Assembly: GCA_023254095.1 (NCBI GenBank)
Contig: JALNLM010000023.1
Location: 1-14,924, forward strand
Direction of reading: 5' to 3'
DNA from: Candidatus Geocrenenecus huangii
GTDB taxonomy: Archaea > Thermoproteota > Nitrososphaeria_A > Caldarchaeales > Wolframiiraptoraceae
Length of the DNA: 14,924 bases
Made by a program: the position numbers and the translations under genes. Every line of letters begins with the position of its first letter. Position 1 is the first letter of the stretch. The notes beneath the pieces were generated by a model. The model was not told the origin of the DNA, made no database searches, and was given only the letters and a program-made list of their open reading frames with translations. This document shows, in pieces, positions 3-14,766 of the stretch.

Positions 3-935
3 AAGGGTAGAGACTTCATTACTACTAGAGATTTTACGAAGGAGGATCTTGAGTTTCTACTAGATTTATCTTCTCATTTTAAATCAATGTTTTATGGAGG
101 TATGAGGAAAACTCTTAGAGATGTTTTAGAAGGTAGGAATATTGCTTTACTCTTCAAGAAGCCCTCGACTAGAACTAGGAACTCTTTCCAAGTTGCAGCC
201 AGTAGGCTTGGAGCACTTTCAGTATATATGAGACCTGATGAGCTACAGCTTGCTAGAGGCGAACCCATCATTGATACAGCGAATGTTCTAGATAGATATT
301 ATGATGGATTAGTTATCAGAACATTTGAGCAAGCTGAAGTTGAAGAATACGCTAGATACATGAAGAATCCTGTAATCAATGCTTTAACAGACGAGGAGCA
401 TCCATGCCAAGCTATGGCCGACTTACTCACTATAATAGAGAAGAAGAGTAGGCTAGATGGATTAAGAATGGTTTACACCGGAGATGTATGGAATGTATGT
501 CACTCACTTATTACTGTAGCACCTGTATTCGGTATAGATTTGATAATAGCTGTTCCAAGAGGGTATGAGCCTCTACCCGAGATATGGAAGTTTGGTCAAG
601 ATAGAGCTTCGAGAAATGGTACAAGGCTAGAGATCGTTCACGATATCAGAGAAGCCGTGAAGGGAGCAGACATAGTATATGCTAATACTTGGTGGAGCAT
701 GGGTAAGCCTGAGATGGAGAAAGAGAAAAGAAAAATAGACTTCAAACCATTTACGGTAACGGCCGACATCATGAATCTAGCTAAGGAAGACGCAATATTC
801 ATGCATTGTCTACCAGCCTACAGGGGAAACGAGATGACCACAGAGGTAATTGAAGGAAAATGGTCAGTAGTATACGACCAAGCAGAAAACAGATTATGGA
901 CAGAGGCAGCAATATTGGCTGCACTAATCTCATAA
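3..935 (+). CDS. argF: Ornithine carbamoyltransferase-family transcarbamylase, 5'-truncated at the window edge; substrate possibly not ornithine
   Basis: The frame is open from base 3 (KGRDFITTRDFTKEDLEFLLDLS..., a typical OTC N-terminus), so the ATG at 87 is internal. Motifs: STRTR (165-179), HPCQ (399-410), WWSMG (690-704), HCLP (804-815), ENR (885-893). Confidence 0.85.
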   Translation, partial: KGRDFITTRDFTKEDLEFLLDLSSHFKSMFYGGMRKTLRDVLEGRNIALLFKKPSTRTRNSFQVAASRLGALSVYMRPDELQLARGEPIIDTANVLDRYYDGLVIRTFEQAEVEEYARYMKNPVINALTDEEHPCQAMADLLTIIEKKSRLDGLRMVYTGDVWNVCHSLITVAPVFGIDLIIAVPRGYEPLPEIWKFGQDRASRNGTRLEIVHDIREAVKGADIVYANTWWSMGKPEMEKEKRKIDFKPFTVTADIMNLAKEDAIFMHCLPAYRGNEMTTEVIEGKWSVVYDQAENRLWTEAAILAALIS

Positions 936-966
936 ATATAATACTGTACCGGCAATCCACATAGTT

Positions 967-1014
967 CAAAAAGATATATCACCGTAAGATAAAGTAGTTG
1001 TGCTGGTGGAGGTG
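967..1014 (+). promoter_or_regulatory. Putative BRE/TATA-like element and RBS for the aminotransferase
   Basis: CAAAAAGATATATC at 967-980; GGAGGTG at 1008-1014, 5 nt before the ATG at 1020. The RBS is strong and the promoter tentative. Confidence 0.5.
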
Positions 1015-1019
1015 GATAA

Positions 1020-2381
1020 ATGTTTAACTTGGAGTATGAAAAATTCAAGAAGAAGAATAGTACCTCGTGTAGGATATTTGAGGAGAGTAAGCTTTTTACA
1101 CCTTGTGGTGTTCACAGTAATTATAGAGTCCACGACCCGTTTCCAATCTTCGTAAGTAGAGCTAAAGGGTCTAGGATATGGGATGCTGATGGAAACGAGT
1201 ACATAGACTTCAACATGGCCTTCGGGGCCCTCGTAGCAGGTCACTCCCACCCCATAATTGTTGAAGAATTAAAGAAAGCACTAGAAGAAGGTACAATTTT
1301 CGGACATGAATCAAGCGAATCAGTTAAGCTTGCAAAGATACTATGTAATAGGTTCAACCTAGATATGGTTAGATTCAACTCGACTGGCATGGAGGTTACC
1401 ATGTATGCTGTTAGGCTGGCCCGAGCGTACACGGGTAGAAGCAAGATCATGAAGTTTGAAGGATGCTATCATGGAAGCAACGATAATCTACTTGTAAGCG
1501 TTAAACCCCACCTCTCAAAAACTGGACATATTAAGCATCCCATATCTGTGCCTGCCTCGCCGGGACTGTTACCTGAAGTCTCGAAGTACACAGTGGTGGC
1601 TCAATTCAATGATGTGGAATCTGTAGATAAGCTCTTCGGAAAACATGGAGATGAGATAGCTGGAGTGATACTTGAACCAGTAGCGATGAACATGGGCGTG
1701 ATAGAGCCTGACCCAGAATTTCTGAAAACGTTGAGAAAACTATGTGATGAATACAATTCTGTCCTCATATATGATGAGGTGAAAACATGCGGTAAATGGT
1801 TTGGTGGGGCAGAAGAAAAGTATGGTGTAAAGCCTGATTTGAAGACTTTAGGCAAGGCGATAGGGGGAGGAATACCATTATCCGCTATAGGTGGGAGAAG
1901 AGAGATCATGGAGCTTTTTGGGCCGGGTAAGGTCTCTCATGCAGGGACATTTAACGCAAACCCTCTATCAGTCAAAGCAGGAATAACAACGTTAGAGAAG
2001 ATCCTTACTAAAGATGCGTTAAGTAGAGCTGGAAGGTTAGGTGAACAGCTTGCTAACGGATACAGGGATATAGTAACAGACTATAAGATAAAAGCATTGG
2101 TCAGCTCTATAGGCGTAAGCGGAGCAGTACTTTTCACCGACCAAGAACATGTTAGAAACTATCGTGAACTACTCAGATGCGATTTTGGTAAATGGTTTGG
2201 ATACTTCATCTCCATGTTGAATAGGGGAATTATTCCCGCTGCGACAGGACCGGATGAGCAGTGGACCATTTCGGTCCAACACTCTTCAGAAGATGTTGAA
2301 AAGCATATTGAAGCGTTCAAAGAAGTGGCATCAATGATTAAAGATATTAAGCAACCACTGGAAATGGTTGAAGCAGTTTAA
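1020..2381 (+). CDS. Class III PLP-dependent aminotransferase, glutamate-1-semialdehyde aminomutase (HemL)-like
   Basis: WDADGNEYIDF, FEGCYHG, ILEPV, YDEVKT, GKAIGGG (PLP lysine codon at 1854), HAGTFNANP; 453 aa; good RBS. It diverges from canonical HemL motifs, so no symbol is given. Confidence 0.85.
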   Translation: MFNLEYEKFKKKNSTSCRIFEESKLFTPCGVHSNYRVHDPFPIFVSRAKGSRIWDADGNEYIDFNMAFGALVAGHSHPIIVEELKKALEEGTIFGHESSESVKLAKILCNRFNLDMVRFNSTGMEVTMYAVRLARAYTGRSKIMKFEGCYHGSNDNLLVSVKPHLSKTGHIKHPISVPASPGLLPEVSKYTVVAQFNDVESVDKLFGKHGDEIAGVILEPVAMNMGVIEPDPEFLKTLRKLCDEYNSVLIYDEVKTCGKWFGGAEEKYGVKPDLKTLGKAIGGGIPLSAIGGRREIMELFGPGKVSHAGTFNANPLSVKAGITTLEKILTKDALSRAGRLGEQLANGYRDIVTDYKIKALVSSIGVSGAVLFTDQEHVRNYRELLRCDFGKWFGYFISMLNRGIIPAATGPDEQWTISVQHSSEDVEKHIEAFKEVASMIKDIKQPLEMVEAV

Positions 2382-2480
2382 CCCTATCCGAGACGGCTTC
2401 AAAACAGATACGTCTGTAAAGACCCTTTATCCGCATAATAAGGTGCTCAGAGAGTTCGTGGAAGCTAAGCTGAAGATTAA

Positions 2481-2494
2481 AGAAAAATTAATAA
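2481..2494 (+). promoter_or_regulatory. Putative BRE-TATA for the ABC transporter operon
   Basis: AGAAAAATTAATAA, ending about 30 nt upstream of the ATG at 2526. Confidence 0.45.
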
Positions 2495-2525
2495 GTGAAA
2501 GGTAATAACATAATGCACAGAAAAT

Positions 2526-3644
2526 ATGTGGAGAACGTATTATAAAAAGGTTAAGGGTGTTTCCAAGCTTTTACTTATAATAGTAATTGTTGTCATCTTG
2601 ATTGTGAGCGGGATAGCCGCATATACTCTTACCCAGATCCAGACGCCAACAACATCTAGAATTATTTCACCCGGCAAGCTGGTAGTATTTGTCTGGGAAG
2701 ACTTCACAGTTCCAGATGTATTCGATCCCCTCACCAAGAAGTATCCTACACTAACTATCGAAAACAACATATTCACTTCTCAGCCGGAGATGCTTGCAAA
2801 ACTTATGGGGGGATTCAAAGCAGATGTTGTAAGTCCATGCATAGATTTCCTACCTAGACTAATCGAGCAGGATATGCTACAGCCTATCGACTTGGCTCGA
2901 CTCAGCAACTGGAACAACATATTCAAGAGTATCAGAGAGTATCCAGGAATATGGAGAGATGGGAAACTCTACATGGTTCCAACAGCTTTCGGTCTCCAGG
3001 CAGGAGTAACATACAGAAAAGATAAGGTCTCCTCCATAAATAGCTGGGCCGACATATTCAATCCCGCATATAAGAATAGGGTATTGATACTTAACGATGC
3101 GAGAATAGGTATTGTGATGGCTGCGTGGGCTCTAGGCTACGAACATCCATGGAATCTAACAAGCCGAGATCTTCAAAGAATTGCAGAATTCTATAAGGAA
3201 CATAGAGACGTGATCTTAAAGTTTTATGAAAGTGATATAGAGGCCAGAGAGCTGTTAGCCTCTGGGGATGCATGGATTATTGCTGGAAGCGGTCCAGCCC
3301 AATCATATTGGTTGATGTCTGAAGGGATAGAAGCAGAGTTCGTGCTCCCAGAAGGTAAAGGGATAGGCTGGTTATGTGGTTTAAGCATCTTGAAAGCATC
3401 AGAGAACCTTGAAGGAGCACATCTCTACATAGACTACTTCATCTCTGAAGACCCGCAAACATACTATGCTTATGAATGGCTTTACGGTCCAACAAATGAA
3501 AACGTTTTCAGAAAGATTCCAGAAGAGAAGCTTAAGGAGAGTGGGATAGTTGGGCCGGAAACGTTATCCGAGGTCTTGCCACTAATCGATCCGCCAAATC
3601 TGGATGAGTGGCTCCAGGTCTGGGAGAAAATAGTTGCAGGATAA
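2526..3644 (+). CDS. potD: PotD/PotF-family ABC substrate-binding protein with N-terminal membrane anchor
   Basis: Basic N-terminus plus hydrophobic helix; LVVFVWEDF, SINSWADIFNP.YK.RV, PEGKGIGW, A..YIDYF motifs; precedes potABC-like genes. Confidence 0.8.
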   Translation: MWRTYYKKVKGVSKLLLIIVIVVILIVSGIAAYTLTQIQTPTTSRIISPGKLVVFVWEDFTVPDVFDPLTKKYPTLTIENNIFTSQPEMLAKLMGGFKADVVSPCIDFLPRLIEQDMLQPIDLARLSNWNNIFKSIREYPGIWRDGKLYMVPTAFGLQAGVTYRKDKVSSINSWADIFNPAYKNRVLILNDARIGIVMAAWALGYEHPWNLTSRDLQRIAEFYKEHRDVILKFYESDIEARELLASGDAWIIAGSGPAQSYWLMSEGIEAEFVLPEGKGIGWLCGLSILKASENLEGAHLYIDYFISEDPQTYYAYEWLYGPTNENVFRKIPEEKLKESGIVGPETLSEVLPLIDPPNLDEWLQVWEKIVAG

Positions 3645-3651
3645 AGCAGGC

Positions 3652-4713
3652 ATGGTCTTGCTTGAACTAGTAAATATATACAAGTATTACGGGAAGATAA
3701 CCGCTCTAGAAGATATAAATCTAGAAGTTGGGAAGGGTGAACTACTAACAATATTGGGTCCGAGCGGAAGCGGTAAGAGCACTCTACTAAAAATTATAGG
3801 AGGATTCGAGGAGCCCTCGAGAGGAAAGATATACATTAACGGGAAATTAATGAATGGTGTACCACCGTATGCGAGACCTACAAGTATGGTCTTCCAAGAT
3901 CTTGCATTGTTCCCCCATCTAAACGTATTCAACAACATAGCCTACGGATTAAAGATAAAGAAGGCGCCGTCTAATGAGATAAAAAAGAAAGTAAGAGAGG
4001 TGGCTGAGCTACTACATATTGAAGAACTTCTAGATAGAAGGGTAACCCAGTTAAGTGGAGGTCAGCAGCAGAGAGTAGCTCTAGCACGTTCCCTTATACT
4101 CGAGCCTGAAATACTATTGCTTGATGAACCTTTGGGACCCTTAGATGTGAAGCTCAGGAAGGAAATGCAGTTAGAGCTACGTAGAATACAGAAGAGATTA
4201 AACTCTACATGGATATACGTCACTCACGACCATGAAGAAGCAATGGTTATGTCCGATAGAGTGGCTATACTGAATTCTGGTAGGATAATTGATGTAGGGG
4301 TGGTCAAGGAGATATATGAGAAGCCCAAGAATAGATTCATCGCAGAGTTTCTAGGAGAAGTAAATATAATCGAATGCATAGTAGACCATGTAGAAGGTAG
4401 CGCATTCACAGCCTCCAGCGGAGACTTAAGAATAGAAGGATTAACAGCTGGAAAACTAGAGAAAGGTGATAGGGTAAATATCTTGGTAAGACCTGAGAAG
4501 ATCGGAATTACTGTCACTCCGCTAAATGATAGAAAGAACTCCGTGTCAGGGAAAGTGGTAGAGATAATCTATAAAGGAGCCTACAGCGATGTTAAGATAG
4601 AAACTGAGGATTCTAGGGTCTTCATTGCTAGGACTTTTGAGCCTGCCTATCGTGTTGGAGAGAGGGTCTTCCTGAAATGGGATAGGGAAGATGCGGTTGT
4701 GATTAAAGAATGA
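3652..4713 (+). CDS. potA: PotA-like ABC ATP-binding subunit
   Basis: Walker A GPSGSGKS, VFQDLALFPHL, signature LSGGQQQR, Walker B LLLDEP, VTHD, and a TOBE-like C-terminus. The ATG at 3652 is preferred to the TTG at 3634, which overlaps the upstream gene. Confidence 0.9.
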   Translation: MVLLELVNIYKYYGKITALEDINLEVGKGELLTILGPSGSGKSTLLKIIGGFEEPSRGKIYINGKLMNGVPPYARPTSMVFQDLALFPHLNVFNNIAYGLKIKKAPSNEIKKKVREVAELLHIEELLDRRVTQLSGGQQQRVALARSLILEPEILLLDEPLGPLDVKLRKEMQLELRRIQKRLNSTWIYVTHDHEEAMVMSDRVAILNSGRIIDVGVVKEIYEKPKNRFIAEFLGEVNIIECIVDHVEGSAFTASSGDLRIEGLTAGKLEKGDRVNILVRPEKIGITVTPLNDRKNSVSGKVVEIIYKGAYSDVKIETEDSRVFIARTFEPAYRVGERVFLKWDREDAVVIKE

Positions 4714-5579
4714 ATTTAGAGAAGATACGTAGAAAAATATCAATAAATCTTCTATATTCCCTACCAGCGATAATATATCTAACAATCTTCTTTTATATTC
4801 CCCTGATCACAATAATTGTTTATAGTTTCTGGCATGGTGAGCCTCTCTACCGTGTAGTTAGAACCTTCACATTGGAAAATTATGTAAAATTCTATACGGA
4901 AGAATTATCTCAGAATATCTTCATATTAACGAATCTAATATCTATCGCGACATTCCTGGTAATACTGGCGACAGCGTATCCAATAGCGTATTTCCTCGCT
5001 AGGATGGTTAAAGGAGATACAGGTCTGAAAATAATTCTTCTAATACTGATTCCTCTTGAAATGAATTATCTAATCAGGGTATTTGCCTGGAGAAACCTGT
5101 TAGGAGAGAACGGCTTACTGAATAGTCTCCTCATGTTTCTAGGCTTAGTTGAGCAGCCTCTAACAATATTTTTCCACAGTATCCCAGCCATAATCATCGT
5201 GGTGCTACACAATGCATTGCCATACGCTATCATCCCACTCTACATAACTATTAGAAGCATTCCTGAGAGCTTGTATCAGGCAGCCATGGATCTCGGGTCG
5301 AATAGGATTAGTGTATTCTTCAGAGTAACGCTTCCACTTAGTATGCCTGGAGTAGCGATAGCATTCTTATTCATCTATATACCGATGATGGGTGAATTCG
5401 CTATTCCAGCTCTAGTAGGTGGGAAAACATATCTGCTTGGAAATCTAATCGTTAGGCAGTATCTCACTATAGGTAACTGGCCATACGCTTCAGCATCAAC
5501 CATAAGTTTGATATTAACTACTCTGATAGTTATGTTTATTCTTTTCAAGTTCTTAGGGGTTAGGAGGCTTTACGAATGA
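4710..5579 (+). CDS. potB: PotB-like ABC permease
   Basis: Multiple TM segments; AYPIAYFLAR, IRVFAW, EAA-type loop SLYQAAMDLGS...F.RVTLPLS.PG, NWP; ATGA overlap with potA. Confidence 0.88.
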   Translation: MNLEKIRRKISINLLYSLPAIIYLTIFFYIPLITIIVYSFWHGEPLYRVVRTFTLENYVKFYTEELSQNIFILTNLISIATFLVILATAYPIAYFLARMVKGDTGLKIILLILIPLEMNYLIRVFAWRNLLGENGLLNSLLMFLGLVEQPLTIFFHSIPAIIIVVLHNALPYAIIPLYITIRSIPESLYQAAMDLGSNRISVFFRVTLPLSMPGVAIAFLFIYIPMMGEFAIPALVGGKTYLLGNLIVRQYLTIGNWPYASASTISLILTTLIVMFILFKFLGVRRLYE

Positions 5580-6370
5580 GTTTAATCAAGCTTTTCCTTA
5601 AAATATTTACATCAACGGTTATCCTACTACTTATCTACCTACCGATAGCATTAGTCATCCTGTTCTCTTTCAATGATAGCATATACTTCATATTTCCATT
5701 TAAGAATTTCACATTTAAATGGTATGAGAGGCTACTCGAAGACCCCCTATTCTTGAAGAGTATAATCAACTCGATAATTATCGCGTTAGCTGTATCTGCT
5801 GGGTCGCTGTCTATAGGTATTCCAGCATCTTTTGCATTTGTAAGATTGAGGAGGAACACGTTATACGTAGGGTTTATCATGATACCGTTCATCATGCCAT
5901 GGCTTGTAATCGGTGTCTCATCACTGGTATTCTTCCACACTCTTGGGATACCTTTATCTATTCTAACGACTGTCTTAAGCCACATAATCTATAGCATACC
6001 CCTTGTAGTGTTAATCGTGGCGGCTAGACTGATCAGTCTCAACCCAAACTATGAGAAGGCAAGTATGGATTTGGGGGCCAATGAAGTCCAAACATTCACT
6101 TATGTAACTTTTCCATTAATCTATCCTGCGATATCGGTCTCAGCTTTAATAACTTTCCTTTGGTCATTCGATAACTTTATCATAACGTTTTTTACGATAG
6201 GCTCAGAGATCACGTTCCCGATCTGGGTCTGGGGATCCCTAAGGCATCCAACTAATGTCCCAGTTATAACTGCCGCATCATCCATAGTTATATTAGTAGG
6301 CTCTCTAATAGTCTACTTGATGGAGACTTACAGGGTCAAGAAAGGAATAGGAATCTACGCCATAATCTAG
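5576..6370 (+). CDS. potC: PotC-like ABC permease
   Basis: IYLPI..VILFSFN, FTFKWY, EAA loop YEKASMDLGA, SFDNF; ATGA overlap with potB. Confidence 0.88.
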   Translation: MSLIKLFLKIFTSTVILLLIYLPIALVILFSFNDSIYFIFPFKNFTFKWYERLLEDPLFLKSIINSIIIALAVSAGSLSIGIPASFAFVRLRRNTLYVGFIMIPFIMPWLVIGVSSLVFFHTLGIPLSILTTVLSHIIYSIPLVVLIVAARLISLNPNYEKASMDLGANEVQTFTYVTFPLIYPAISVSALITFLWSFDNFIITFFTIGSEITFPIWVWGSLRHPTNVPVITAASSIVILVGSLIVYLMETYRVKKGIGIYAII

Positions 6371-6375
6371 CCTTA

Positions 6376-6431
6376 CCATGGTTGTTCAAGCATCCTCTTC
6401 GGAGAACCTTCAAGGGATGACTTGGTTATGG
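6376..6431. terminator. Imperfect long stem-loop between convergent potC and aor; possible terminator or stability element
   Basis: CCATGG/TTATGG, CAAG/CTTG and CATC/GATG pairings enclose CTC-TTCG-GAG. Confidence 0.35.
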
Positions 6432-6442
6432 AGATACGGGTA

Positions 6443-8260
6443 TCAATATTCAACGTCTATTTCAAGTCTCTTCAATGTTTCCCCTATAGGTCTTCCCTCT
6501 TCATCCCATCCTCTAAGTTTGTAATATTCGGAGAGAGACTCCTTGAACTGATGTAGGTCAACTGTTTTCCCATCTGTTTTTCCACCCTTCAAGGGCTCAT
6601 TGAACATCTTGGGAGGCAGAGTATCGTCTTCCTTCTTGAAGCCTTCTCTAAGATTGAATACTCTAGAGATATTCCAGATTCTCTCGCCGATGATCTTTAA
6701 TTCTTCTACTGTGTAGTCTCTTCCAAGGGCAGGTCTTAGAAGTTTGACCATGTCTTCATAACTCGAAAGCCAGAAATCACATATTATCAGTGACCATTTA
6801 ATGCTATTCAGGTCTTGTAAGTCTTTAACGAGCTGGGCTTTCCCCACAAAGCTGTATGGGTCCATTTCACCGAATGCGTCATATGCTACTGCCCAAGCTC
6901 TGAGATGGCATGCTCCTCTATCTGCTGTAGCGTATGCCAGAGCCATCCCGTACGTCCCCCTAGGATCGTATGCTGGTATCTCAGCCCCCTTCACGTCTAA
7001 TCTCTCTTTCAATGCTTCTCCACGGATCTTTTCAGCGGCTCTTCTTGTCCCCTCAGCGAGCAGATTCCCAAACCCCCTTCTATACGCTATCATCTCGCTC
7101 AACTCGATTAAGAATTCGACATCATTCCAAGAAGGCTTTAATCCGTTAAGATCCTTCTCTGAAATCATTCTCTTCTCATAGAGATGGATCGTGAAACCTA
7201 TTGTAGCTCCGAGAGATATCGTATCCATTCCGAGGTCTGTAGCTACTTCAGCTACTTCCGCAACATCTTTAAGATTTCTCAAACCAGTGTTGGAGCCGAG
7301 CATTGCTAATGTTTCATATTCTGGAGATTTGATCAGTCTAGAGTCGAATTTCAGTATCCTTTTACATGCGAGTGGACAATACGGGCAAGCGTACTTCTTA
7401 GCTGTGGCCTCTTTCACTCTATCCGTGTTGATCTTATCATGGTATTCGAATGATCCTGACATGAAGCCGTATGTTGGTAGAACTCCAGCATTATGTGAAA
7501 TATCAACTATTAATGGTGTACCATCGGTCTGCGCCCATAGATTCTCCGAGGTCTTTACTCTATTCCGTGTTAACTCGACCACGGTCTCCCTGAATTTATC
7601 TGGGTCGTATAGTCTGACATCACCCTTAATGTTCCTAACCACCAGTGCTTTAAGATTCTTAGATCCAAATACTGCTCCAGCCCCCCCTCTCCCATGCACC
7701 CATAATCCGCTATCAACGACGGATGCGAATCTGATGAGGTTCTCTCCAGCTGGACCGATAGCTAGAACACTAGCATTTTCATCTCCTAATTCTTCTTTAA
7801 TACGTCTCGACGTCTCAAGAGTTCCTAAACCCCATAAGTTCTTGGCATCATGAAATTCTACGCCTTTTTCCGTAATCTCAATATAAGTGGGTTTATCAGC
7901 TCTGCCTTCAACTATCAGTAAATCATATCCGGAATACTTCATCCTAACACCGAAGTATGATCCACTATAACTATCACACACGGTATTTGTTAAAGGGGAC
8001 TTGGTAATGATTGGGTATCTTCCAGAGAGGGGGGCGATGGTTCCGGTAAGTGGACCAGTAGAAATGATTATCTTATTATCAGGGCTCAGAGGATCGATCT
8101 TCGGAGAAACTTCTTCAAGTAGATATCTGATGCCTAACCCTCTACCCCCGATATATTTCTCGACGAAGTCTCTTCTCGTCTTCTCGATACTGAAGCCTTT
8201 ACTTGTTAAGTTGATTCTTAGAAGCCTCCCAGTATAACAATACAGTTTTTCATTAGTCAT
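6443..8260 (-). CDS. aor: Tungsten-containing aldehyde:ferredoxin oxidoreductase (AOR family)
   Basis: YTGRLLRINL, YIGGRGLG, KSPLT, IGPAGEN, GRGGAGAVFGSKNLKA, CPYCPLAC (Fe-S), EYET, GMDTIS, RGACHL, C-terminal YYKLRGWD; 605 aa. Confidence 0.93.
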   Translation of the reverse strand: MTNEKLYCYTGRLLRINLTSKGFSIEKTRRDFVEKYIGGRGLGIRYLLEEVSPKIDPLSPDNKIIISTGPLTGTIAPLSGRYPIITKSPLTNTVCDSYSGSYFGVRMKYSGYDLLIVEGRADKPTYIEITEKGVEFHDAKNLWGLGTLETSRRIKEELGDENASVLAIGPAGENLIRFASVVDSGLWVHGRGGAGAVFGSKNLKALVVRNIKGDVRLYDPDKFRETVVELTRNRVKTSENLWAQTDGTPLIVDISHNAGVLPTYGFMSGSFEYHDKINTDRVKEATAKKYACPYCPLACKRILKFDSRLIKSPEYETLAMLGSNTGLRNLKDVAEVAEVATDLGMDTISLGATIGFTIHLYEKRMISEKDLNGLKPSWNDVEFLIELSEMIAYRRGFGNLLAEGTRRAAEKIRGEALKERLDVKGAEIPAYDPRGTYGMALAYATADRGACHLRAWAVAYDAFGEMDPYSFVGKAQLVKDLQDLNSIKWSLIICDFWLSSYEDMVKLLRPALGRDYTVEELKIIGERIWNISRVFNLREGFKKEDDTLPPKMFNEPLKGGKTDGKTVDLHQFKESLSEYYKLRGWDEEGRPIGETLKRLEIDVEY

Positions 8261-8604: not shown

Positions 8605-9039
8605 TTGAGTGAAGGAGTAAGATTAACTGACAAGGAGATCAAGTATATGTCATTGTTTGAAGCAGCTACAGGTGCATCTGTTATTGACTGCATAGATTCA
8701 GGCGACATAATGGTCTTCATAGTTGGCGATGGAGAACTTAAGAAAGTTTTATCGGGAAAAGGTGTAAAGATCCAGCAATTCTCTAGAATTGTTAAGAAGA
8801 AGATAAAAGTCATAGAGTATTCTCCAGACCCCTCCAAGTTCATTGAGAATGCACTTCTTCCAGCTAAAGTAATCGAGCCTATCAGAGTTACCGAGAGAAC
8901 AGACGGAAGGAAGATAGCAGTTGTAACAGTTGATCCTAAAGATAAAGGAGTAGCAATAGGCAAGAACGGTAAAACAATAGAGCTTATACGTTTAATAGCT
9001 AAGAGGCATCACCAGATCGATAACGTCATCGTAACCTAG
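8605..9039 (+). CDS. nusA: Archaeal transcription elongation factor NusA (two KH domains)
   Basis: LTDKEIKYMSLFEAATGA..IDC, KIKVIEYS.DP.KFI.N.L.PA, DKGVAIGKNGK; 144 aa; TTG start. Confidence 0.93.
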   Translation: MSEGVRLTDKEIKYMSLFEAATGASVIDCIDSGDIMVFIVGDGELKKVLSGKGVKIQQFSRIVKKKIKVIEYSPDPSKFIENALLPAKVIEPIRVTERTDGRKIAVVTVDPKDKGVAIGKNGKTIELIRLIAKRHHQIDNVIVT

Positions 9040-9173
9040 CCGAGAATATTGTAGATACTACATACGAGAAAATATTAAATATTAGCAGAGAGAATGATCT
9101 AGGCCTACTTTTAATTTTGACTTTTGCATTATTAAACGCTACTCAAATATTAGTTTTACTCTTGAATAATTAG

Positions 9174-9215
9174 CGAAACATTAAATATAGAGTATAACAA
9201 AAAAAGATAGGAGTG
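9174..9215 (+). promoter_or_regulatory. BRE-TATA and RBS of ppdK
   Basis: CGAAACATTAAATA at 9174-9187; GGAGTG at 9210-9215, 9 nt before the ATG at 9225. Confidence 0.55.
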
Positions 9216-9224
9216 TTTTTGAAT

Positions 9225-11912
9225 ATGTCTGAGAATAAACCCAGAGTACTATTGTTTGAAGAAGCTGTAGGCTTAACGAAATTCGAGCTTGGCGGTAAAG
9301 GATATGGATTAGTAGAAATGACTAGAATAGGGCTGCCTGTACCACCTGGATTAAATATCCCAACCTACGTTTGTAGAGAATACTATTCTACCGGAAGATT
9401 CCCAGACGGCTTAATAGATGAGGTAAGAGAGAAGCTCAGAATCATAGAGGAAAGAGTTGGGAGAAGATTCGGCTCAACCGAGAGGCCTCTTCTAGTGTCT
9501 GTCAGGTCTGGGGCTCCATATTCTATGCCGGGAATGATGGACACAATCTTAAACCTAGGATTGAATGATGAGATCGTTAAGAGTCTAGCTGGAGAAACAA
9601 GGGATGAGAGATTCGCGTATGACTCCTACCGTAGATTGATCCAGATGTTCGGCAAGATAGTTCTAGGAGTCAAAGATGAAAAATTCGATGAAATAATTGA
9701 AGAGCATAAGAAGAAGCTTGGAATAAAACATGACATAGAAATATCCGCAGAAGAATGGAAGAAAATTATCGAGGAATTTAAAGAATTGATTAAGAAGGAG
9801 GCTGGAATAGAGTTTCCCCAAGATCCATGGGAGCAGCTGCGGATGGCTATTGAAGCGGTCTTCAAATCATGGAATAATCCTAGAGCGATAGTCTATAGAA
9901 AGACATACAATATTCCTGAAGACTTGTATACCGCTGTAAATATCCAAATGATGGTCTTCGGGAATCTTGGATTCGACTCCGGCACAGGTGTAGGATTCAC
10001 TAGAAATCCGTCCACGGGGGAGAAGAAACTCTATGGAGAATACTTGCTGAATGCTCAAGGAGAAGATGTTGTAGCGGGAATTAGAACACCTAAACCGCTA
10101 GAGGAGTTGAAGAATGAGCTAACACAAGTCTATGAAGAGCTTCTAAGAGTATCTGAAATCCTTGAAAAACATTTTAGGGAAATGCAAGACTTCGAGTTCA
10201 CGATACAGGAAGGTAAACTATACCTCCTCCAGACGAGGAATGGGAAGAGAACAGCTCAGGCAGCTGTTAAGATAGCTGTAGAAATGGTGAATGAAGGATT
10301 AATTACGAAAGAAGAAGCAATATCCAGAATTGAGCCAAACGACCTAAACCAGCTCCTACATCCTAGAATCGACCCGAACGTCAAGTCTAAACCTATAGCG
10401 AAGGGTCTTAACGCGTCTCCCGGAGCAGCTACAGGAAAAGTAGTATTCACTGCAGATGAAGCAGCAGAACTGGGGTCTAAGGGCGAGAAAGTGATACTTG
10501 TTAGACCCGAGACTAAGCCTGAAGATATACATGGAATGATTGCTGCGCAGGGTATCTTGACGAGTAGAGGTGGGATGACGAGCCATGCGGCTGTGGTTGC
10601 TCGCGGGATGGGTAAGCCAGCGGTAGTAGGAGCGGAAATGATCAAGATCGACCTAGATAAAGAAGTCTTCACTGTTAATGGAGCGCAAGTGAGGAAATTC
10701 GACGTAATAACTATTGATGGAACAACAGGCCACGTCTATCTAGGGGCTGTCCCGACGATAGAGCCCGAGTTGAGCGGCGAACTACAGATCCTGCTCAGCT
10801 GGGCCGACGAGATTAGGAGGCTTGGAGTTAGAGCGAATGCTGAGACTCCTGCCGCGGCACGTAAAGCAAGAGAATTCGGAGCCGAGGGAATAGGGCTAGC
10901 GAGAACTGAGAGAATGTTTAACGCTCCTGACAGGCTCCCAATAGTCTACGAGTTAATATTTGCTGAGACAGAAGAGGAAAGATGGAATGCTGTAAAGAAG
11001 CTTCTACCAATGTTCAAGTCAGACTTTAAACAGATCTTTAGAGAGATGGCTGGATACCCGGTTACAGTCAGGTTACTCGACCTGCCTCTACATGAATTCT
11101 TGCCTAGGATGGAGGAGCTAATACAGGAAGTTACAGAATTGAGGATTAAGGCTAAGAGCCGTAAGAAGGGATATAAGAAAGCCATGAAGCTTCTACAAGA
11201 AAAGGAGCGTATACTTAAGAGAGCCTTACAGCTTGCAGAGCATAATCCAATGATAGGTCATAGAGGATGTAGGCTCGGAATAACATATCCAGAGATATAC
11301 CGCATCCAGACCAGAGCAATACTTGAGGCTGCTTTAGAATTGAAGAAGGAAAGTGTAGAGGTGCATCCAGAGATAATGATACCTTTGGTAAGCGAGGCTA
11401 ACGAGCTGAGCATTCTAAGGAAGATAGTAGAAGATGAAGCAGAGAAGGTGTTCCAAGAATATGGAGACAGAATAGAATTCCACGTAGGAACAATGATAGA
11501 AACTCCTAGAGCAGCTCTAACAGCTTCAGAGATAGCCAAGGTCGCAGACTTCTTTAGCTTTGGAACAAACGATTTAACACAGATGACCTTCGGCTTCAGT
11601 AGAGATGATGCAGAAGCCAAGTTCATGGCCCAGTATCTCGGCAAGAAGATTCTATCCCACAACCCATTCGAGAAGATAGATGAGAAAGGAGTTGGAAGGC
11701 TTGTCAAGATAGGGACGAAGGAAGGAAAACAAGCTAACCCTAAGCTAATCGTAGGAATCTGCGGAGAACATGGAGGAGACCCTGACAGTATAAGGCTCTT
11801 CGAGGAAGCAGGATTAGACTATGTAAGCTGCTCACCATACCGTGTACCGATAGCACGGCTAGCAGCAGCCCAAGCAAGATTAAAAGAACTCGCCGTAAAA
11901 ATAACAGTATAA
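9225..11912 (+). CDS. ppdK: Pyruvate, phosphate dikinase
   Basis: LGGKG, PLLVSVRSGA..SMPGMMDT, NAQGEDVVAGIRTP, LQTRNGKRT, GGMTSHAAVVARG (phospho-His), SFGTNDLTQ, GICGEHGG. The ATG at 9225 is preferred because the GTG at 9213 lies inside the RBS. Confidence 0.96.
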   Translation: MSENKPRVLLFEEAVGLTKFELGGKGYGLVEMTRIGLPVPPGLNIPTYVCREYYSTGRFPDGLIDEVREKLRIIEERVGRRFGSTERPLLVSVRSGAPYSMPGMMDTILNLGLNDEIVKSLAGETRDERFAYDSYRRLIQMFGKIVLGVKDEKFDEIIEEHKKKLGIKHDIEISAEEWKKIIEEFKELIKKEAGIEFPQDPWEQLRMAIEAVFKSWNNPRAIVYRKTYNIPEDLYTAVNIQMMVFGNLGFDSGTGVGFTRNPSTGEKKLYGEYLLNAQGEDVVAGIRTPKPLEELKNELTQVYEELLRVSEILEKHFREMQDFEFTIQEGKLYLLQTRNGKRTAQAAVKIAVEMVNEGLITKEEAISRIEPNDLNQLLHPRIDPNVKSKPIAKGLNASPGAATGKVVFTADEAAELGSKGEKVILVRPETKPEDIHGMIAAQGILTSRGGMTSHAAVVARGMGKPAVVGAEMIKIDLDKEVFTVNGAQVRKFDVITIDGTTGHVYLGAVPTIEPELSGELQILLSWADEIRRLGVRANAETPAAARKAREFGAEGIGLARTERMFNAPDRLPIVYELIFAETEEERWNAVKKLLPMFKSDFKQIFREMAGYPVTVRLLDLPLHEFLPRMEELIQEVTELRIKAKSRKKGYKKAMKLLQEKERILKRALQLAEHNPMIGHRGCRLGITYPEIYRIQTRAILEAALELKKESVEVHPEIMIPLVSEANELSILRKIVEDEAEKVFQEYGDRIEFHVGTMIETPRAALTASEIAKVADFFSFGTNDLTQMTFGFSRDDAEAKFMAQYLGKKILSHNPFEKIDEKGVGRLVKIGTKEGKQANPKLIVGICGEHGGDPDSIRLFEEAGLDYVSCSPYRVPIARLAAAQARLKELAVKITV

Positions 11913-12013
11913 ACCAGCATATACTAAAACATCCATTTAAAATCTCCCAGCTTTCCAACATTCATATACGGAAATCATATAAACACTCTAAGCCTACTCA
12001 AAAATGTAGATTT

Positions 12014-12184
12014 GTATCTAGAGTAACTGGTGGAGAACTATTAAAACGATGCCTAATACAAGAAAATGTAAAATATGTGTTTGGCGTTCCTGGAGACCAG
12101 CTGTATCCATTCTTGGACACAATATACAAGGATGAAAGACTGGAATTTATTACGTTTCGTCATGAAGCAGCAGCTTCTTCGTAA
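12014..12184 (+). pseudogene. 5' remnant of a thiamine-diphosphate-dependent enzyme (acetolactate synthase/POX family)
   Basis: Translates as VSRVTGGELLKRCLIQENVKYVFGVPGDQLYPFLDTIYKDERLEFITFRHEAAASS*, with the TGGELL, VFGxPG and RHExxA motifs. The start position reads GTA, and the frame stops after 56 codons of an enzyme usually about ten times longer. Confidence 0.85.
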
Positions 12185-12276
12185 GCTTTATTCTTATTCA
12201 ATTCTTCTTTATACGTTCTAATACACTCTTCACTAGGGAACCTATACTTCTCCAATCTATACCGCAAATAATTCAT
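12160..12276 (-). other. 38-codon minus-strand ORF, possibly the 5' remnant of a second gene
   Basis: MNYLRYRLEKYRFPSEECIRTYKEELNKNKAYEEAAAS*; purine-rich and coding-like; AGAAAAATTAATA upstream on the minus strand (12302-12290). Family not recognised. Confidence 0.3.
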
Positions 12277-12686
12277 CCTAGAAAATGGATATTAATTTTT
12301 CTAATAATTACTTACTGGGAGACCATGCCTAGCTCATAATGTTTAACATAGACGTGAGAGTTGCTGCGATGCTGACCCCTGCGCTGCCTCCGATACTAGG
12401 TTCTTCCTTGGTCCTAGATTATCCTCCCTAGTATTCTCTCCTTAAATGTATCTAGTTTTTAAAATTTCTAATGATTTTTCAGAGAATATTCTTGCTAGAA
12501 AATACTCCTAGAATTATTATTGAGGGATAGTTAAGGGTAACGTTAAGTAGGTCAATAGTGCAACGACATTACTCTAGCTGGCAGGGCATCGAAAACCTAG
12601 ATACTGCAAAATATCGACTACGTATTTCTCAAGGAACTGGGATGCCGCCTCGAGTTGAAGCTTTCCATCCTCTTCAATGTATAGGT

Positions 12687-12699
12687 AAAGGTTTATGAA
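12687..12699 (+). promoter_or_regulatory. Putative BRE-TATA of rps12
   Basis: AAAGGTTTATGAA, ending 27 nt before the ATG at 12726; no SD sequence. Confidence 0.45.
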
Positions 12700-12725
12700 A
12701 TACTGTTTAATATCAGATTCTTGGA

Positions 12726-13154
12726 ATGGGTAACGGGGAGCATGCATCGAGAAAACTAAAGAAGAATAGAAAGAAGTTTAGATGGAGTCAGAGAGAATAT
12801 CGCGTGAGAATGCTCCAACTTAAGAAGAAGGTAGATCCTCTAGAAGGAGCACCGATGGCAAGAGGAATTGTTATCCAGAAAGTAGGCATAGAGTCGAGGC
12901 AGCCTAACTCAGCTGTAAGAAAAGCTGTAAGAGTGCAACTCATAAAGAATGGTAAAGTAGTAACAGCATTCTGCCCAGGGGATGGAGCATTAAACGTAAT
13001 AGATGAGCATGACGAAGTAATAATCTCCGGCATAGGTGGAACACTAGGGAGATCCATGGGAGATCTGCCTGGAGTAAGATACAAAGTTGAACTCGTAAAC
13101 GATGTACCACTAAAACTACTCATTCTAGGTAAAGTTAAGAAGCCGAGAAGATAG
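12726..13154 (+). CDS. rps12: 30S ribosomal protein uS12 (archaeal S12)
   Basis: [50 protein letters not shown]. Confidence 0.98.
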
Positions 13155-13320
13155 CTTCTACAAATATTGTATTTCTCGAGATATTGGATCAGCAAAATCG
13201 TTAAAAACTTCTTTACAGTAATCTTGTTGTCATGGTGCTAACAGATCGATACCTTTATTCAGAATGCATGAAGAAGATAATTTATGAGGTTATAGGGTTT
13301 GATGCAGGTGGTGCAAGTGC

Positions 13321-14112
13321 ATGGTGCTTGTCTCTCCAACATTAGTAAAGCAGAAAGTAAAAAGCTACCCAATACTTGAGAAGGCTTTCACAATACTAGA
13401 AGAAAGTGTGGAAGTCCAGTCCTACCTCTTGATGGCGAATGTTACTGCTGTTCAGAGGCTCATGTACAATGATCATGGACCCGTGCATTCAAGGATCGTC
13501 GCAGGCTCAGCATTAGAGATCATGGACATACTTTTAGAGAATGGTTATACATCATCTATCGTTAAAGACTCGGTTGGAGACGAGGTGGATTCTAGGCTTG
13601 TAGCAATGATGGGAGCGTATCTCCACGATATAGGTAATGCTATCCATAGAAGCCTGCATCACGTTACCGGTGTAGCTTTAGCATCCCGCTTCCTACCCAG
13701 AATACTTATGAAGATCTATAAGGACAACGTTAAACCATACAGGCTAACCCCTGAAATACTTCACTGCATCTTAGCACATGATGAAAGGGAGAGAGCTTTA
13801 AGCCTAGAAGCTGGAGTATCAAAAGTAGCTGATGGAACCGACATGGCTGGAGGAAGAGCTAGGATACCGTACAAACATGGTAAATCAGATATTCATGCCC
13901 TCTCAGCACTAGCCATAAAGAAGGTTGAGATAATTCAGAGCGAAGATGAAAAAAGACCTGTTAAGATAATCGTTGATATGGAGAACGAAGCGGGAATATT
14001 CCAGATAGAGCAAGTACTAGGCTTAAAGATACAGACTTCAGGAATAGCACAAGCAGTAGAGATAGAGGCATTAAAGAATGGCCTACACTTTAAGACTTTG
14101 ACATTTGGTTGA
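13321..14112 (+). CDS. HD-superfamily metal-dependent phosphohydrolase (COG3294-like)
   Basis: YNDHGPVH, YLHDIGN..HR..H, ILAHD, ADGTDM..GRARIP, DIHALSA; AGGTGGTG RBS upstream. Confidence 0.85.
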   Translation: MVLVSPTLVKQKVKSYPILEKAFTILEESVEVQSYLLMANVTAVQRLMYNDHGPVHSRIVAGSALEIMDILLENGYTSSIVKDSVGDEVDSRLVAMMGAYLHDIGNAIHRSLHHVTGVALASRFLPRILMKIYKDNVKPYRLTPEILHCILAHDERERALSLEAGVSKVADGTDMAGGRARIPYKHGKSDIHALSALAIKKVEIIQSEDEKRPVKIIVDMENEAGIFQIEQVLGLKIQTSGIAQAVEIEALKNGLHFKTLTFG

Positions 14113-14144
14113 AAAACCTCAGAATATATACGTTTCATGTGAAT

Positions 14145-14154
14145 GGTTTAAGAA
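14145..14154 (+). promoter_or_regulatory. Putative TATA of rps7
   Basis: GGTTTAAGAA, ending about 30 nt before the ATG at 14185. Confidence 0.4.
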
Positions 14155-14184
14155 TAAGCTATCAGACATAATTATGACAATAGG

Positions 14185-14766
14185 ATGTCAGAGGAGCTAG
14201 TCGAGAAGTTTAAGATATTCGGTAAATGGAGTATAGAGGGGGTTGAAGTAAAAGATCCTGGTTTAAAAAGGTACATCAATCTTAAGCCAACCATCATACC
14301 TCATTCAGGCGGAAGACATGAGCATAGAAGATTCGGGAAAGCAGAAGTAAATATCGTTGAGAGACTTGCCAACATGTTTATGAGACCTGGAAGAAACGGT
14401 GGAAAAAAGACTAAAGGATTAAAGATAGTGAGAAATGCTTTCGAGATAATATACCTGAGGACTGGTAGAAACCCATTAGAAGTCTTGGTAAGAGCTATCG
14501 AGAACGCTGCACCACGCGAAGACGTAACAAAATTAATCTATGGAGGAATACTCTATCTCAAAGCAGTTGATATATCTCCACAGAGAAGGCTAGACCTAGC
14601 TTTAAGATATATTGCTCAAGCAGCTAGAGAATCAGCATTTAGAAGTAAAAAGAAAGTTGAAGAAGCTTTAGCAGATGAGGTAATCATGGCGGCGGAGAAT
14701 GATAGTAAAAGCTACGCTATAAGAAAGAAGGTTGAATTAGAGAGGATGGCTTACGCATCCCGCTAA
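14185..14766 (+). CDS. rps7: 30S ribosomal protein uS7 (archaeal S7)
   Basis: [20 protein letters not shown]...[51 protein letters not shown]. Confidence 0.98.

Follow-up and report, generated by a model that had tools for sequence, protein, structure and literature searches.

The arginine deiminase (ADI) pathway (ArcA-D) of Pseudomonas aeruginosa, Mycoplasma penetrans and Halobacterium salinarum joins a deiminase of the pentein fold, phosphorolysis by an enzyme of the ornithine transcarbamylase (OTC) family, and ATP formation by carbamate kinase. Here, we describe a locus of the archaeon Candidatus Geocrenenecus huangii (Caldarchaeales) in which the same logic can be read. The DNA analyzed, hereafter the window, is 14,924 nt long and is the whole of contig C14 (C14:1-14924) of the source genome, G000, a 1.6-Mb assembly in 32 contigs. 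The window opens with genes for an OTC-family transcarbamylase and for a HemL-like class-III enzyme, and these two genes are probably the downstream half of a deiminase-type, ATP-yielding cluster, in which deimination, phosphorolytic decarbamoylation, carbamate kinase, transamination and an aldehyde:ferredoxin oxidoreductase (AOR) would follow one another. Our leading reading, to which we give a probability of about 0.4, is an ADI-type pathway with arginine as its substrate, extended by transamination and tungsten-AOR oxidation. An ADI-like deiminase encoded at the end of contig C26 would convert L-arginine to citrulline and ammonia, the transcarbamylase would cleave citrulline with phosphate to ornithine and carbamoyl phosphate, and an unlinked carbamate kinase (C22) would make ATP. 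The HemL-like pyridoxal phosphate (PLP) enzyme would then turn ornithine into glutamate 5-semialdehyde by transamination of the delta-amino group, and the convergent tungsten-type AOR would oxidize the semialdehyde to glutamate while reducing ferredoxin. A Pot-like importer (2526-6370), an inserted module, may bring in either the substrate or an amine related to it.

How the locus compares with described systems differs from gene to gene. Like ADI, the deiminase keeps the catalytic Cys/His/Glu/Asp set and both carboxylate-binding Arg residues; unlike ADI, it scores 21 against 489 bits as ArcA, has extra N-terminal helices and carries Lys at a substrate-contacting Asn, while its partner transcarbamylase is without the Asp of the DxxxSMG motif. 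The carbamate kinase is unlinked, the window has no ArcD-type antiporter, and a transaminase and an AOR stand in place of ornithine export. Thermococcus kodakarensis, in the available text of its description, takes arginine to citrulline by ArcE (TK2200) and continues with an OTC (TK0871), a carbamate kinase (TK2158) and an ornithine omega-aminotransferase (TK2101) (PMC11032458). That route resembles ours in belonging to an archaeal peptide fermenter, in passing from arginine through citrulline to OTC and carbamate kinase, and in having a class-III aminotransferase that acts on ornithine. ArcE, however, is of the P-loop NTPase type and related to cyclic 2,3-diphosphoglycerate synthetase, whereas the first enzyme here, P0004, is an unrelated pentein, and an identification of P0004 as ArcE (arginine synthetase) was therefore ruled out (PMC11032458).

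The OTC branch also holds enzymes of other specificity. In the agmatine deiminase pathway of Enterococcus faecalis (agmatine deiminase, putrescine transcarbamylase [PTCase] and carbamate kinase), a catabolic transcarbamylase of this branch likewise follows a pentein deiminase and takes a non-ornithine ureido substrate, but the window enzyme has neither the PTCase signatures, as given in the available part of a transcarbamylase review, nor a score above the TIGR04384 cutoff (PMC4581275). The same part of the review describes the diaminopropionate and diaminobutyrate transcarbamylases (DPTCase and DBTCase), which resemble the window enzyme in that the Asp of DxxxSMG is replaced. Theirs is replaced by Thr or Ser (TRWQSMG and (T/S)RWQTTG), and the two enzymes have an Asp in HxLP and are biosynthetic; in contrast, the clade to which the window enzyme belongs, here called Asn-type, reads NTW[WH]SMG and HCLP and lies in catabolic contexts. 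Among solved structures, the OTC of Pyrococcus furiosus (PDB 1pvv and 1a1s) comes closest in sequence, at 429 bits against the clade profile, and has the same length and fold family, but it reads GDGNNV and DVWASMG where the Asn-type consensus is GDVWNV and NTWHSMG. Finally, the tungsten AORs of the Wolframiiraptoraceae and Thermococcales (PMC9246946) belong to the same enzyme family as the window AOR and include those of the same organism family. The main text of that paper makes no mention of arginine, deiminase, carbamate, ornithine or polyamine, and no AOR subgroup is linked there to a cluster of deiminase and transaminase.

Extra argF and hemL paralogs and the Asn-type clade

The transcarbamylase and HemL-like genes are paralogs in a catabolic context and not the housekeeping argF and hemL, a conclusion supported by the rest of the genome. 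A canonical argF on C9 scores 431.8 bits, above the 366.5 bits of the window copy, with which its product shares 42% identity; C19 carries argG and argH side by side as well as an argB-like kinase. A canonical hemL on C4 scores 563 bits against an equivalog cutoff of 527.3 and lies directly next to hemC. The window HemL-like copy, by comparison, reaches 398 bits against the same cutoff (TIGR00713), and its neighbor is the transcarbamylase gene rather than a tetrapyrrole gene. Because separate canonical argF and hemL genes exist in the genome, the window copies are extra paralogs. On both genes, the check that the earlier note had set for itself came out in its favor. The earlier note on this DNA had proposed that standard annotation would hide such a system, and database sources indeed label the transcarbamylase clade "ornithine carbamoyltransferase." A third HemL-like paralog (G000:C5:1295-2551; L042:1277-2581, minus strand) scores 388 bits, also under the hemL cutoff, and adjoins genes for a FecCD-type permease and a Peripla_BP_2 binding protein.

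How far the two enzymes depart from their namesakes is unequal. Aligned to the glutamate-1-semialdehyde (GSA) aminomutase of Bacillus subtilis, the HemL-like enzyme has a 7-residue insertion after KFEGCYHG but retains Ser/Arg at the aligned positions, the LGK-motif Lys and the C-terminal Glu. The deviation that the earlier note saw in the transaminase thus holds for the score and the insertion and not for those residues. The transcarbamylase passes the OTC equivalog TIGR00658 (366.8 against 280.85), and its carbamoyl-phosphate motifs STRTR, HPCQ and HCLP, of the forms SxRT, HPxQ and HxLP, align with those of the canonical copies. Also kept are the Lys of FxKxSxRT (FKKPSTRT), the Asn equivalent to N167 of Escherichia coli, and the Ser-Met-Gly of DxxxSMG. 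At the positions of specificity, the note's claim of deviation was borne out: DxxxSMG is NTWWSMG in the window enzyme, and GDGNNV of the canonical copies is GDVWNV, such that the first position of the NN pair is Trp and the second is still Asn. In the part of the review available, D231, S235 and M236, all within DxxxSMG, are ornithine-binding residues, the motif sets OTCases apart from other members of the family, and replacement of its Asp is the key mark of DPTCase and DBTCase (PMC4581275). PTCases are marked there by Gln in FxQxSxRT, by loss of DxxxSMG for (Y/W)(G/W)(V/L/I)x, and by a C-terminal extension of about 20 residues (PMC4581275). The window enzyme has Lys in place of Gln, keeps SMG, scores 270.6 against 500 by TIGR04384, and, at 310 aa, stops at PTCase residue 308 of 355, without the extension.

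The window enzyme belongs to a large group. N-T-(W/F)-x-SMG together with GD-x-(W/F/Y)-NV was found in 118 of its 120 nearest database relatives, the motif pattern having matched nothing in the other two, and NTFHSMA-like variants keep the Asn. The relatives carry the label ornithine carbamoyltransferase and come from Bacillota, Anaerolineae, Deltaproteobacteria, Bathyarchaeia and Caldarchaeum. Relatives of the window transcarbamylase are encoded in at least 585 metagenome loci, of which 80 were typed by motif: 43 were Asn-type (one of them with Thr), 32 were Asp-type, and 5 were unclear. A maximum-likelihood tree of 53 sequences, unrooted, separated 37 Asn-type from 16 Asp-type rows with a split support of 100/99 and placed the window enzyme on the Asn-type side.

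What surrounds the two types differs. Each whole locus was searched with reference proteins that came from these same loci, and neighbors were assigned by the best tblastn query; the loci differ in length (median, 6.7 kb for Asn-type and 10.6 kb for Asp-type), and those from related organisms are not independent. Asn-type loci held a pentein deiminase-like gene in 14 of 43 cases, a gamma-aminobutyrate (GABA)-type class-III aminotransferase in 17, a carbamate kinase in 5, and an ArgE/DapE deacylase in 2, and none of the four was found in the 32 Asp-type loci. Arginine biosynthesis genes were distributed the other way: an argD best match occurred in 24 of 32 Asp-type loci but in 1 of 43 Asn-type loci, and argB (8), argG (4) and argH (2) were found in Asp-type loci only. 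NCBIfam models, applied to about 113 of 129 immediate-neighbor proteins, placed a 451-aa ADI-like protein directly downstream of the transcarbamylase in L121, L124, L125, L127 and L149 and showed a carbamate kinase to be present in L126, L128 and L132. Aminotransferases passed the GABA aminotransferase equivalog TIGR00700 (506.65) in L128 (545), L131 (548) and L132 (572). No ArcE-like gene was recognized near Asn-type transcarbamylases among 30 open reading frames (ORFs) compared with Pfam and 13 compared with NCBIfam, an ArcE model not being part of either comparison.

We conclude that a large and widespread clade annotated as OTC, without the defining Asp and embedded with deiminases, carbamate kinases and omega-transaminases, has apparently not been described. 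The Asn-type group is absent from the listing in the available part of the transcarbamylase review (PMC4581275), and no new OTC-branch specificity was found among the papers matched in a literature search. We note some further neighbors and variants. In L128, an ATCase-type paralog (3943-4887; TIGR00670, 265 against 237) directly follows the carbamate kinase and Asn-type transcarbamylase genes, and the product of L128:5544-7061 appears by eye to be a polytopic membrane permease. In L160 and L161, the transcarbamylase reads GMSHYSMG, with Met at the Asp position, and L161 has a DDAH-like gene; saccharopine-dehydrogenase-like genes flank Asn-type transcarbamylases in L119 and L162.

A pentein-fold, deiminase-like enzyme upstream

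The window begins at a contig end, and what precedes it can be read from relatives. In G001, one of seven same-genus genomes compared (G001-G007), a 471-aa protein with a weak match to the arginine deiminase family of Pfam is encoded directly upstream of the OTC-like gene (L032/L045), and genes for an aldehyde dehydrogenase, several unknown proteins and the HemL-like enzyme follow downstream. The contig of G003 (L079) starts with the last 67 codons of a deiminase-like gene and continues with the OTC-like, HemL-like and AOR genes. In G000, the deiminase ortholog P0004 (474 aa, C26:1486-62) runs towards base 1 of C26, and both the end of C26 (87% identity) and the start of the window (94%) align to contiguous DNA of G003, leaving a gap of about 300 nt unassembled. 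In sequencing runs X5 and X8, a 7,405-nt contig with the deiminase ends near position 296 of L079, and in X8 a 26.6-kb contig with the OTC-like gene starts near position 288. The gap is bridged in a G003-type strain (X6 record 16), and no contig of the runs examined bridges it in a G000-type strain. The earlier note had found no arginine, heme or deiminase gene in view, which is true within the window but reflects the contig end only, because the window starts where the contig does. The upstream deiminase that it suggested looking for is contiguous with the cluster in G001 and G003 and lies at the facing end of C26 in G000, and the carbamate kinase that it also named is present on C22 (425 against 358). 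Beside the deiminase family, three little-assigned genes travel together in several lineages (L032:7264-10660 in G001, and L055, L058, L059 and L060); they encode a 542-aa protein with relatives in L055 and L060 that match amino-acid permease families of Pfam, a 310-aa protein with faint metallophosphoesterase matches, and a 274-aa protein.

What the deiminase is was approached through its fold. The family is small and archaeal (58 clusters, labeled Caldarchaeales, Nitrososphaeria, Ignisphaera, Acidilobaceae and Korarchaeota), and the deiminase passes the Pfam model PF02274 weakly (34.5 against 22.8). A search of the PDB with the P0004 sequence gave chance-level matches only, and the family profile gave a weak match to an amidinotransferase in its C-terminal part (E = 0.0025). 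Because sequence searches yielded no detectable solved relative, an AlphaFold (AF2) model was built from 38 family members (pLDDT, 91.7) and compared by structure. The best matches were ADIs, with Z scores of 28 to 30 and a root mean square deviation of 2.5 to 2.8 over about 300 residues, and the model carries an extra N-terminal helical region relative to them. Other penteins reached a Z of 25.6 at most: NnhA and amidinotransferases scored about 25, ArgZ and DDAH scored about 24, and agmatine deiminases scored 22 to 23.

Active-site residues were mapped through an ADI-like protein, L084, which was aligned to the family by hhalign (probability, 96.9) and to P. aeruginosa ADI entries 1rxx, 2aci and 2abr by phmmer, with the D166A and D280A mutant entries fixing the numbering. 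Family residues D229, R248, E285, R307, H345, D347 and C462 correspond to D166, R185, E224, R243, H278, D280 and C406 of P. aeruginosa ADI, and all seven are invariant in the 38 members. The deiminase thus has the pentein fold, the Cys/His/Glu triad, the two guanidinium-binding Asp residues and the two carboxylate-binding Arg residues of ADI. In ADI, as the available part of the source has it, two Arg residues bind the carboxylate of the substrate, and an Asn and backbone carbonyls bind its alpha-amino group (PMC3474736). The Asn was matched between M. arginini (N155) and P. aeruginosa (N160) numbering by motif spacing, and that match is itself an inference; the ADI-like controls L084 and L085 keep the residue. 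A canonical arcA above the cutoff was found in none of 301 genomes of the phylum, and three matches of 180 to 200 bits were used as an alignment bridge only. Halobacillus loci L081-L083 were also considered as a bridge and were rejected, the ORF being only 316 aa.

How the deiminase family is placed in other genomes bears on the rest of the scheme. The flanks of 37 genome loci with relatives of the family, many of them short, were scanned by tblastn: AORs were found in nine loci, OTC-family genes in five, carbamate kinases in two (plus a fragment in L077) and class-III aminotransferases in several. In Desulfurococcaceae, the order is SSF transporter, deiminase and an overlapping M20 amidase that passes both the allantoate amidohydrolase subfamily (407 against 399) and the carbamoylase family (314 against 204). 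A hydrolytic decarbamoylase is thereby found where Geocrenenecus has a transcarbamylase and is therefore independent support for a sequence from guanidino to ureido to amine. The Desulfurococcaceae deiminase also has a class-III aminotransferase close by, together with an AOR and its ferredoxin-type partners, and L050 adds a carbamate kinase; the aminotransferases are of the diaminobutyrate transaminase family (407 against 401.6 in L050; 387, below the cutoff, in L077). L077 combines an OTC-family gene (NTWYSMG), the aminotransferase, the deiminase, an amino-acid permease, and fragments of carbamate kinase and AOR genes. APC-type permeases accompany the cluster in G001, L077, L125 and L143. 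L074 has a transcarbamylase next to a carbamate kinase and a member of the deiminase family, and this transcarbamylase passes the N-acetylornithine transcarbamylase equivalog (295.5 against 288). Its called ORF (L074:5149-7107, minus strand, 652 aa) has a LivM-like permease as its N-terminal half, perhaps through a wrong start or a frameshift, and the deiminase frame there is also broken.

The AOR recurs in this company. In L069, from a distant lineage, an AOR, a HemL-like gene (47% identical to that of the window) and the deiminase lie side by side, with the HemL-like gene in between. The deiminase-adjacent AORs of L069, L073, L075 and L076 are 51 to 52% identical to the window AOR, whereas the other six of the seven AOR paralogs in G000 are 29 to 37% identical to it. 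The window protein belongs to the AOR family by AFOR_N (255.8 bits) and AFOR_C (413.8 bits) and does not reach the equivalog NF007354 (227 against 868). Its orthologs include one in G003 (93%), directly after the HemL-like gene, and one in the array of G007 described below (85%).

The importer, the rest of the window and relatives

The layout of the window was established from an ORF listing and family scans with Pfam and NCBIfam/TIGR models (Table 1), and it reproduces the six co-oriented genes and convergent AOR of the earlier note.

Table 1. Features of the cluster end of the window (positions in the 14,924-nt window)
Feature	Position	Strand	Family match or remark
OTC-family transcarbamylase paralog, Asn-type clade	3-935	+	Pfam OTCace_N and OTCace; first few codons lost at contig start
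HemL-like class-III PLP enzyme, proposed omega-transaminase	1020-2381	+	PF00202
Membrane-anchored solute-binding protein, distant PotD/PotF relative	2526-3644	+	SBP_bac_8
ABC ATPase, PotA-like	3634-4713	+	ABC_tran and TOBE_2
ABC permease, PotB-like	4710-5579	+	BPD_transp_1
ABC permease, PotC-like	5576-6370	+	BPD_transp_1
AOR family enzyme, convergent on the cluster	6443-8260	-	AFOR_N and AFOR_C

The transporter genes overlap successively by 11, 4 and 4 nt, and the binding protein has a hydrophobic N-terminal stretch, as read from its translation. Likeness to polyamine importers is at the family level only, as the equivalogs of PotABCD and PotFGHI were not reached (PotD, 72.7 against 582; PotF, 39.6 against 636; PotA, 375.9 against 482; PotB, 160.5 against 348; PotC, 120.5 against 326). 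The earlier note had the binding protein deviate at specificity positions; likeness was compared at the level of hidden Markov models, and at that level the protein is far from PotD and PotF.

The Pot-like importer is a separately conserved module that has been joined to the transcarbamylase and HemL-like pair only in the G000 strain type. Orthologs of the binding protein (60 to 82%) occur in 7 of 40 relatives, on other contigs. In the six relatives whose loci were fetched, the Pot cassette lies beside an M20 deacylase of the ArgE/DapE family and never beside the OTC-like gene, and in G001, G003, G005 and G038 (the last from another family of the same order) a class-III aminotransferase is also beside it. 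In G000, the M20 deacylase and class-III aminotransferase are on C26, a few kilobases from the deiminase. The 26.6-kb contig of X8 and one contig of X6 carry 4,105 extra letters, the Pot cassette, between the HemL-like and AOR genes; because these contigs have the same arrangement as G000, the position of the cassette is not a misassembly. Modules of amine catabolism have thus been shuffled in this region, and the idea of six co-oriented genes as one conserved unit does not hold.

How the other genes are distributed is likewise uneven. Orthologs of the OTC-like gene (72 to 96%) occur in only 5 of 40 relatives (G001, G002, G003, G006 and G038), the best matches elsewhere being at the level of the canonical argF (41 to 47%), and the paralog is present in five of eight genomes of the genus, G000 counted. 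A close ortholog of the deiminase (61 to 100%) is also found in five of eight, with a more distant copy (47%) in G007, and none was found in G004 (59% complete) or G006 (84% complete). The HemL-like ortholog is present in all seven genus genomes examined, G004 having been left out, and is 80 to 95% identical in the six besides G000. In G007 (L106, G007:C4:1-14000; L110), a codirectional array is composed of the HemL-like gene, a second Pot-like cassette, a saccharopine-dehydrogenase-like gene, the AOR gene and another saccharopine-dehydrogenase-like gene. Contigs from an RNA library (X15) cover, at about 88 to 99% identity, portions of the OTC-like, HemL-like and AOR genes found in relatives, and as DNA carry-over is possible they are not counted as expression.

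Beyond the AOR, the window encodes archaeal NusA, pyruvate phosphate dikinase, S12, an HD-domain protein and S7 (8605-14766). The dikinase gene (9213-11912) sits between NusA and S12, and the HD-domain gene (13321-14112) sits between S12 and S7; the dikinase is also found within a few kilobases of deiminase-family genes in L056, L058 and L068. About 810 nt (11913-12725) hold no ORF longer than 57 aa and no Rfam family, and an Rfam scan of the window as a whole likewise returned no family. A 35-aa ORF in that interval (12077-12184) is, by eye, a putative N-terminal fragment of a thiamine-diphosphate enzyme.

Substrate and competing readings

Why arginine is preferred as the substrate rests first on the deiminase. 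Because it keeps both carboxylate-binding Arg residues and is structurally closest to ADI, the route from arginine through citrulline to ornithine is the single most likely one. The pass of the transcarbamylase as OTC, the diaminobutyrate-type aminotransferases of Desulfurococcaceae, the APC-type permeases and the precedent of T. kodakarensis also speak for arginine. Several observations weigh against that route. The deiminase falls far short of the arcA equivalog TIGR01078 (21.1 against 489.1), and Lys223, present in at least 90% of the 38 sequences, occupies the place of the Asn that contacts the alpha-amino group in ADI. The 451-aa ADI-like family of bacteria, unrelated to the first and also found beside Asn-type transcarbamylases, has Ser or Ala at that Asn. 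The window transcarbamylase is without the ornithine-binding Asp that, in the available part of the review, defines OTCases (PMC4581275), and its NTWWSMG and GDVWNV motifs have, in two places, an aromatic residue instead of a small or polar one. GABA-type models give the partner aminotransferases their highest scores, and none of those seen reached the ornithine aminotransferase cutoff. The aldehyde dehydrogenase of the G001 operon passes the cutoff of the methylmalonate-semialdehyde dehydrogenase (MMSDH) subfamily (494 against 448.5). As for linkage, the carbamate kinase is apart from the cluster in G000, the AOR is tied to it by recurrent proximity, and the adjacency of deiminase and window at the C26-C14 junction would follow from synteny and facing contig ends rather than from sequence read through it. 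Finally, G038 is 95% complete and has the OTC-like gene (72%), yet no deiminase was found there, and G005 and G007 have the HemL-like gene, with no OTC-like paralog found.

The strongest competitor keeps the scheme and changes the substrate to a guanidino carboxylate that has no free alpha-amino group, for example 4-guanidinobutyrate, 5-guanidinovalerate or an N-alpha-acyl-arginine. The deiminase would make a ureido acid, the transcarbamylase would release carbamoyl phosphate and an omega-amino acid (GABA, 5-aminovalerate or N-acetylornithine), and a transaminase followed by AOR or aldehyde dehydrogenase would complete the route. We consider this possible but doubtful. Contacts to the alpha-amino group have changed in step, with Asn for Asp in the transcarbamylase (118 of 120) and Lys or Ser/Ala for Asn in two separate pentein families, while the deiminase keeps both Arg residues for the carboxylate. 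Loss of the same Asp marks the non-OTC enzymes DPTCase and DBTCase in the available review text (PMC4581275), and the Asn-type and Asp-type sequences split cleanly in the tree. The GABA aminotransferases of L128, L131 and L132, an Fe-alcohol dehydrogenase that precedes the one in L131, the N-acetylornithine-type transcarbamylase of L074 and the MMSDH-type enzyme of G001 would all fit, as would the ArgE/DapE deacylases that recur in L118, L133 and L140, on C26, and next to the Pot cassettes of six relatives. An Asn side chain is still able to form a hydrogen bond with an amino group, however, and the transcarbamylase does pass the curated OTC equivalog. The deiminase is structurally nearest to ADI, and its two Arg residues are positioned as they would be for arginine. 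GABA-type transaminases are promiscuous, and the aminotransferases of Desulfurococcaceae are in the diaminobutyrate transaminase family, the members of which act on alpha,omega-diamino acids. Moreover, the breadth of the candidate list shows how weakly the data constrain the substrate. A literature search found no description of a guanidino-acid deiminase route, nor the terms "guanidinobutyrate deiminase" or "carbamoyl-GABA."

The same alternative can be put for the clade as a whole, and there too it is tentative. The Asn-type enzymes (NTW[WH]SMG and GDxWNV) of Bacillota, Chloroflexota, Deltaproteobacteria, Bathyarchaeia and Caldarchaeales might be misannotated catabolic transcarbamylases for a ureido acid without a free alpha-amino group (4-ureidobutyrate, 5-ureidovalerate or N-acetylcitrulline) in an ATP-yielding guanidino-acid pathway. 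The earlier note had favored a non-ornithine substrate; the residue changes suggest one and make it plausible, but ornithine remains the likelier product. Its wider proposal of a single energy-yielding catabolic route survives in outline, backed by the paralog status of the genes, the deiminase and the carbamate kinase, and fails for the importer.

The remaining readings are less able to account for the gene neighborhoods. The transcarbamylase could act on an imported ureido compound, citrulline or another, that enters by the Pot-like importer, with the deiminase as an optional feeder. G038, in which no deiminase was found, also has a HemL-like gene (54%) and a window-type binding protein (60%), 29 of the 43 Asn-type metagenome loci showed no pentein gene, and the importer directly follows the two enzymes in G000-type strains. 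We think this very unlikely nonetheless, because the transcarbamylase gene comes immediately after that of the deiminase in G001 and G003 and, judged by synteny, also in G000, the importer lies elsewhere and beside other enzymes in six relatives, and absence of a pentein gene is weak evidence where many of the loci are short. An agmatine route is scarcely credible either, in which agmatine would yield N-carbamoylputrescine and then putrescine and carbamoyl phosphate, with transamination, AOR acting on 4-aminobutanal, and Pot-type import. Two Pot-like cassettes and several saccharopine-dehydrogenase-like genes with weak matches to carboxynorspermidine synthase are in the neighborhood across the genus, and the HemL-like gene heads the second cassette and the AOR in the G007 array. 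The transcarbamylase has none of the PTCase marks (PMC4581275, available part), however, and the deiminase keeps both Arg residues for a carboxylate and finds its weakest pentein matches among agmatine deiminases. Least credible of all is a chance association in which a spare biosynthetic argF and an additional GSA aminomutase happen to lie by a transporter and an AOR: both enzymes do pass broad curated models (TIGR00658; NF000818 subfamily, 412.8 against 398) and gene order is fluid within the genus, but canonical copies exist in their proper contexts, argB, argG and argH are in 0 of 43 Asn-type loci while Asp-type loci usually have arg neighbors, and the grouping of HemL-like, deiminase-family and AOR genes recurs in the distant lineage of L069.

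What the locus would mean depends on the substrate. Hundreds of genes called argF or "ornithine carbamoyltransferase" sit in catabolic contexts and fail the motif that defines OTCases, and therefore metabolic reconstructions that count Asn-type genes as arginine biosynthesis are probably wrong. If a guanidino acid is the substrate, both the specificity of the transcarbamylases and the deiminase route would be new, with GABA-type or HemL-like transaminases and, in these archaea, an end at a tungsten AOR. If instead the arginine pathway that we prefer is correct, hot-spring Caldarchaeales and several other Thermoproteota would gain a route from arginine to ATP, built from a deiminase family and a transcarbamylase clade that are both uncharacterized, and the tungsten AOR would be tied to the catabolism of amino-acid nitrogen.

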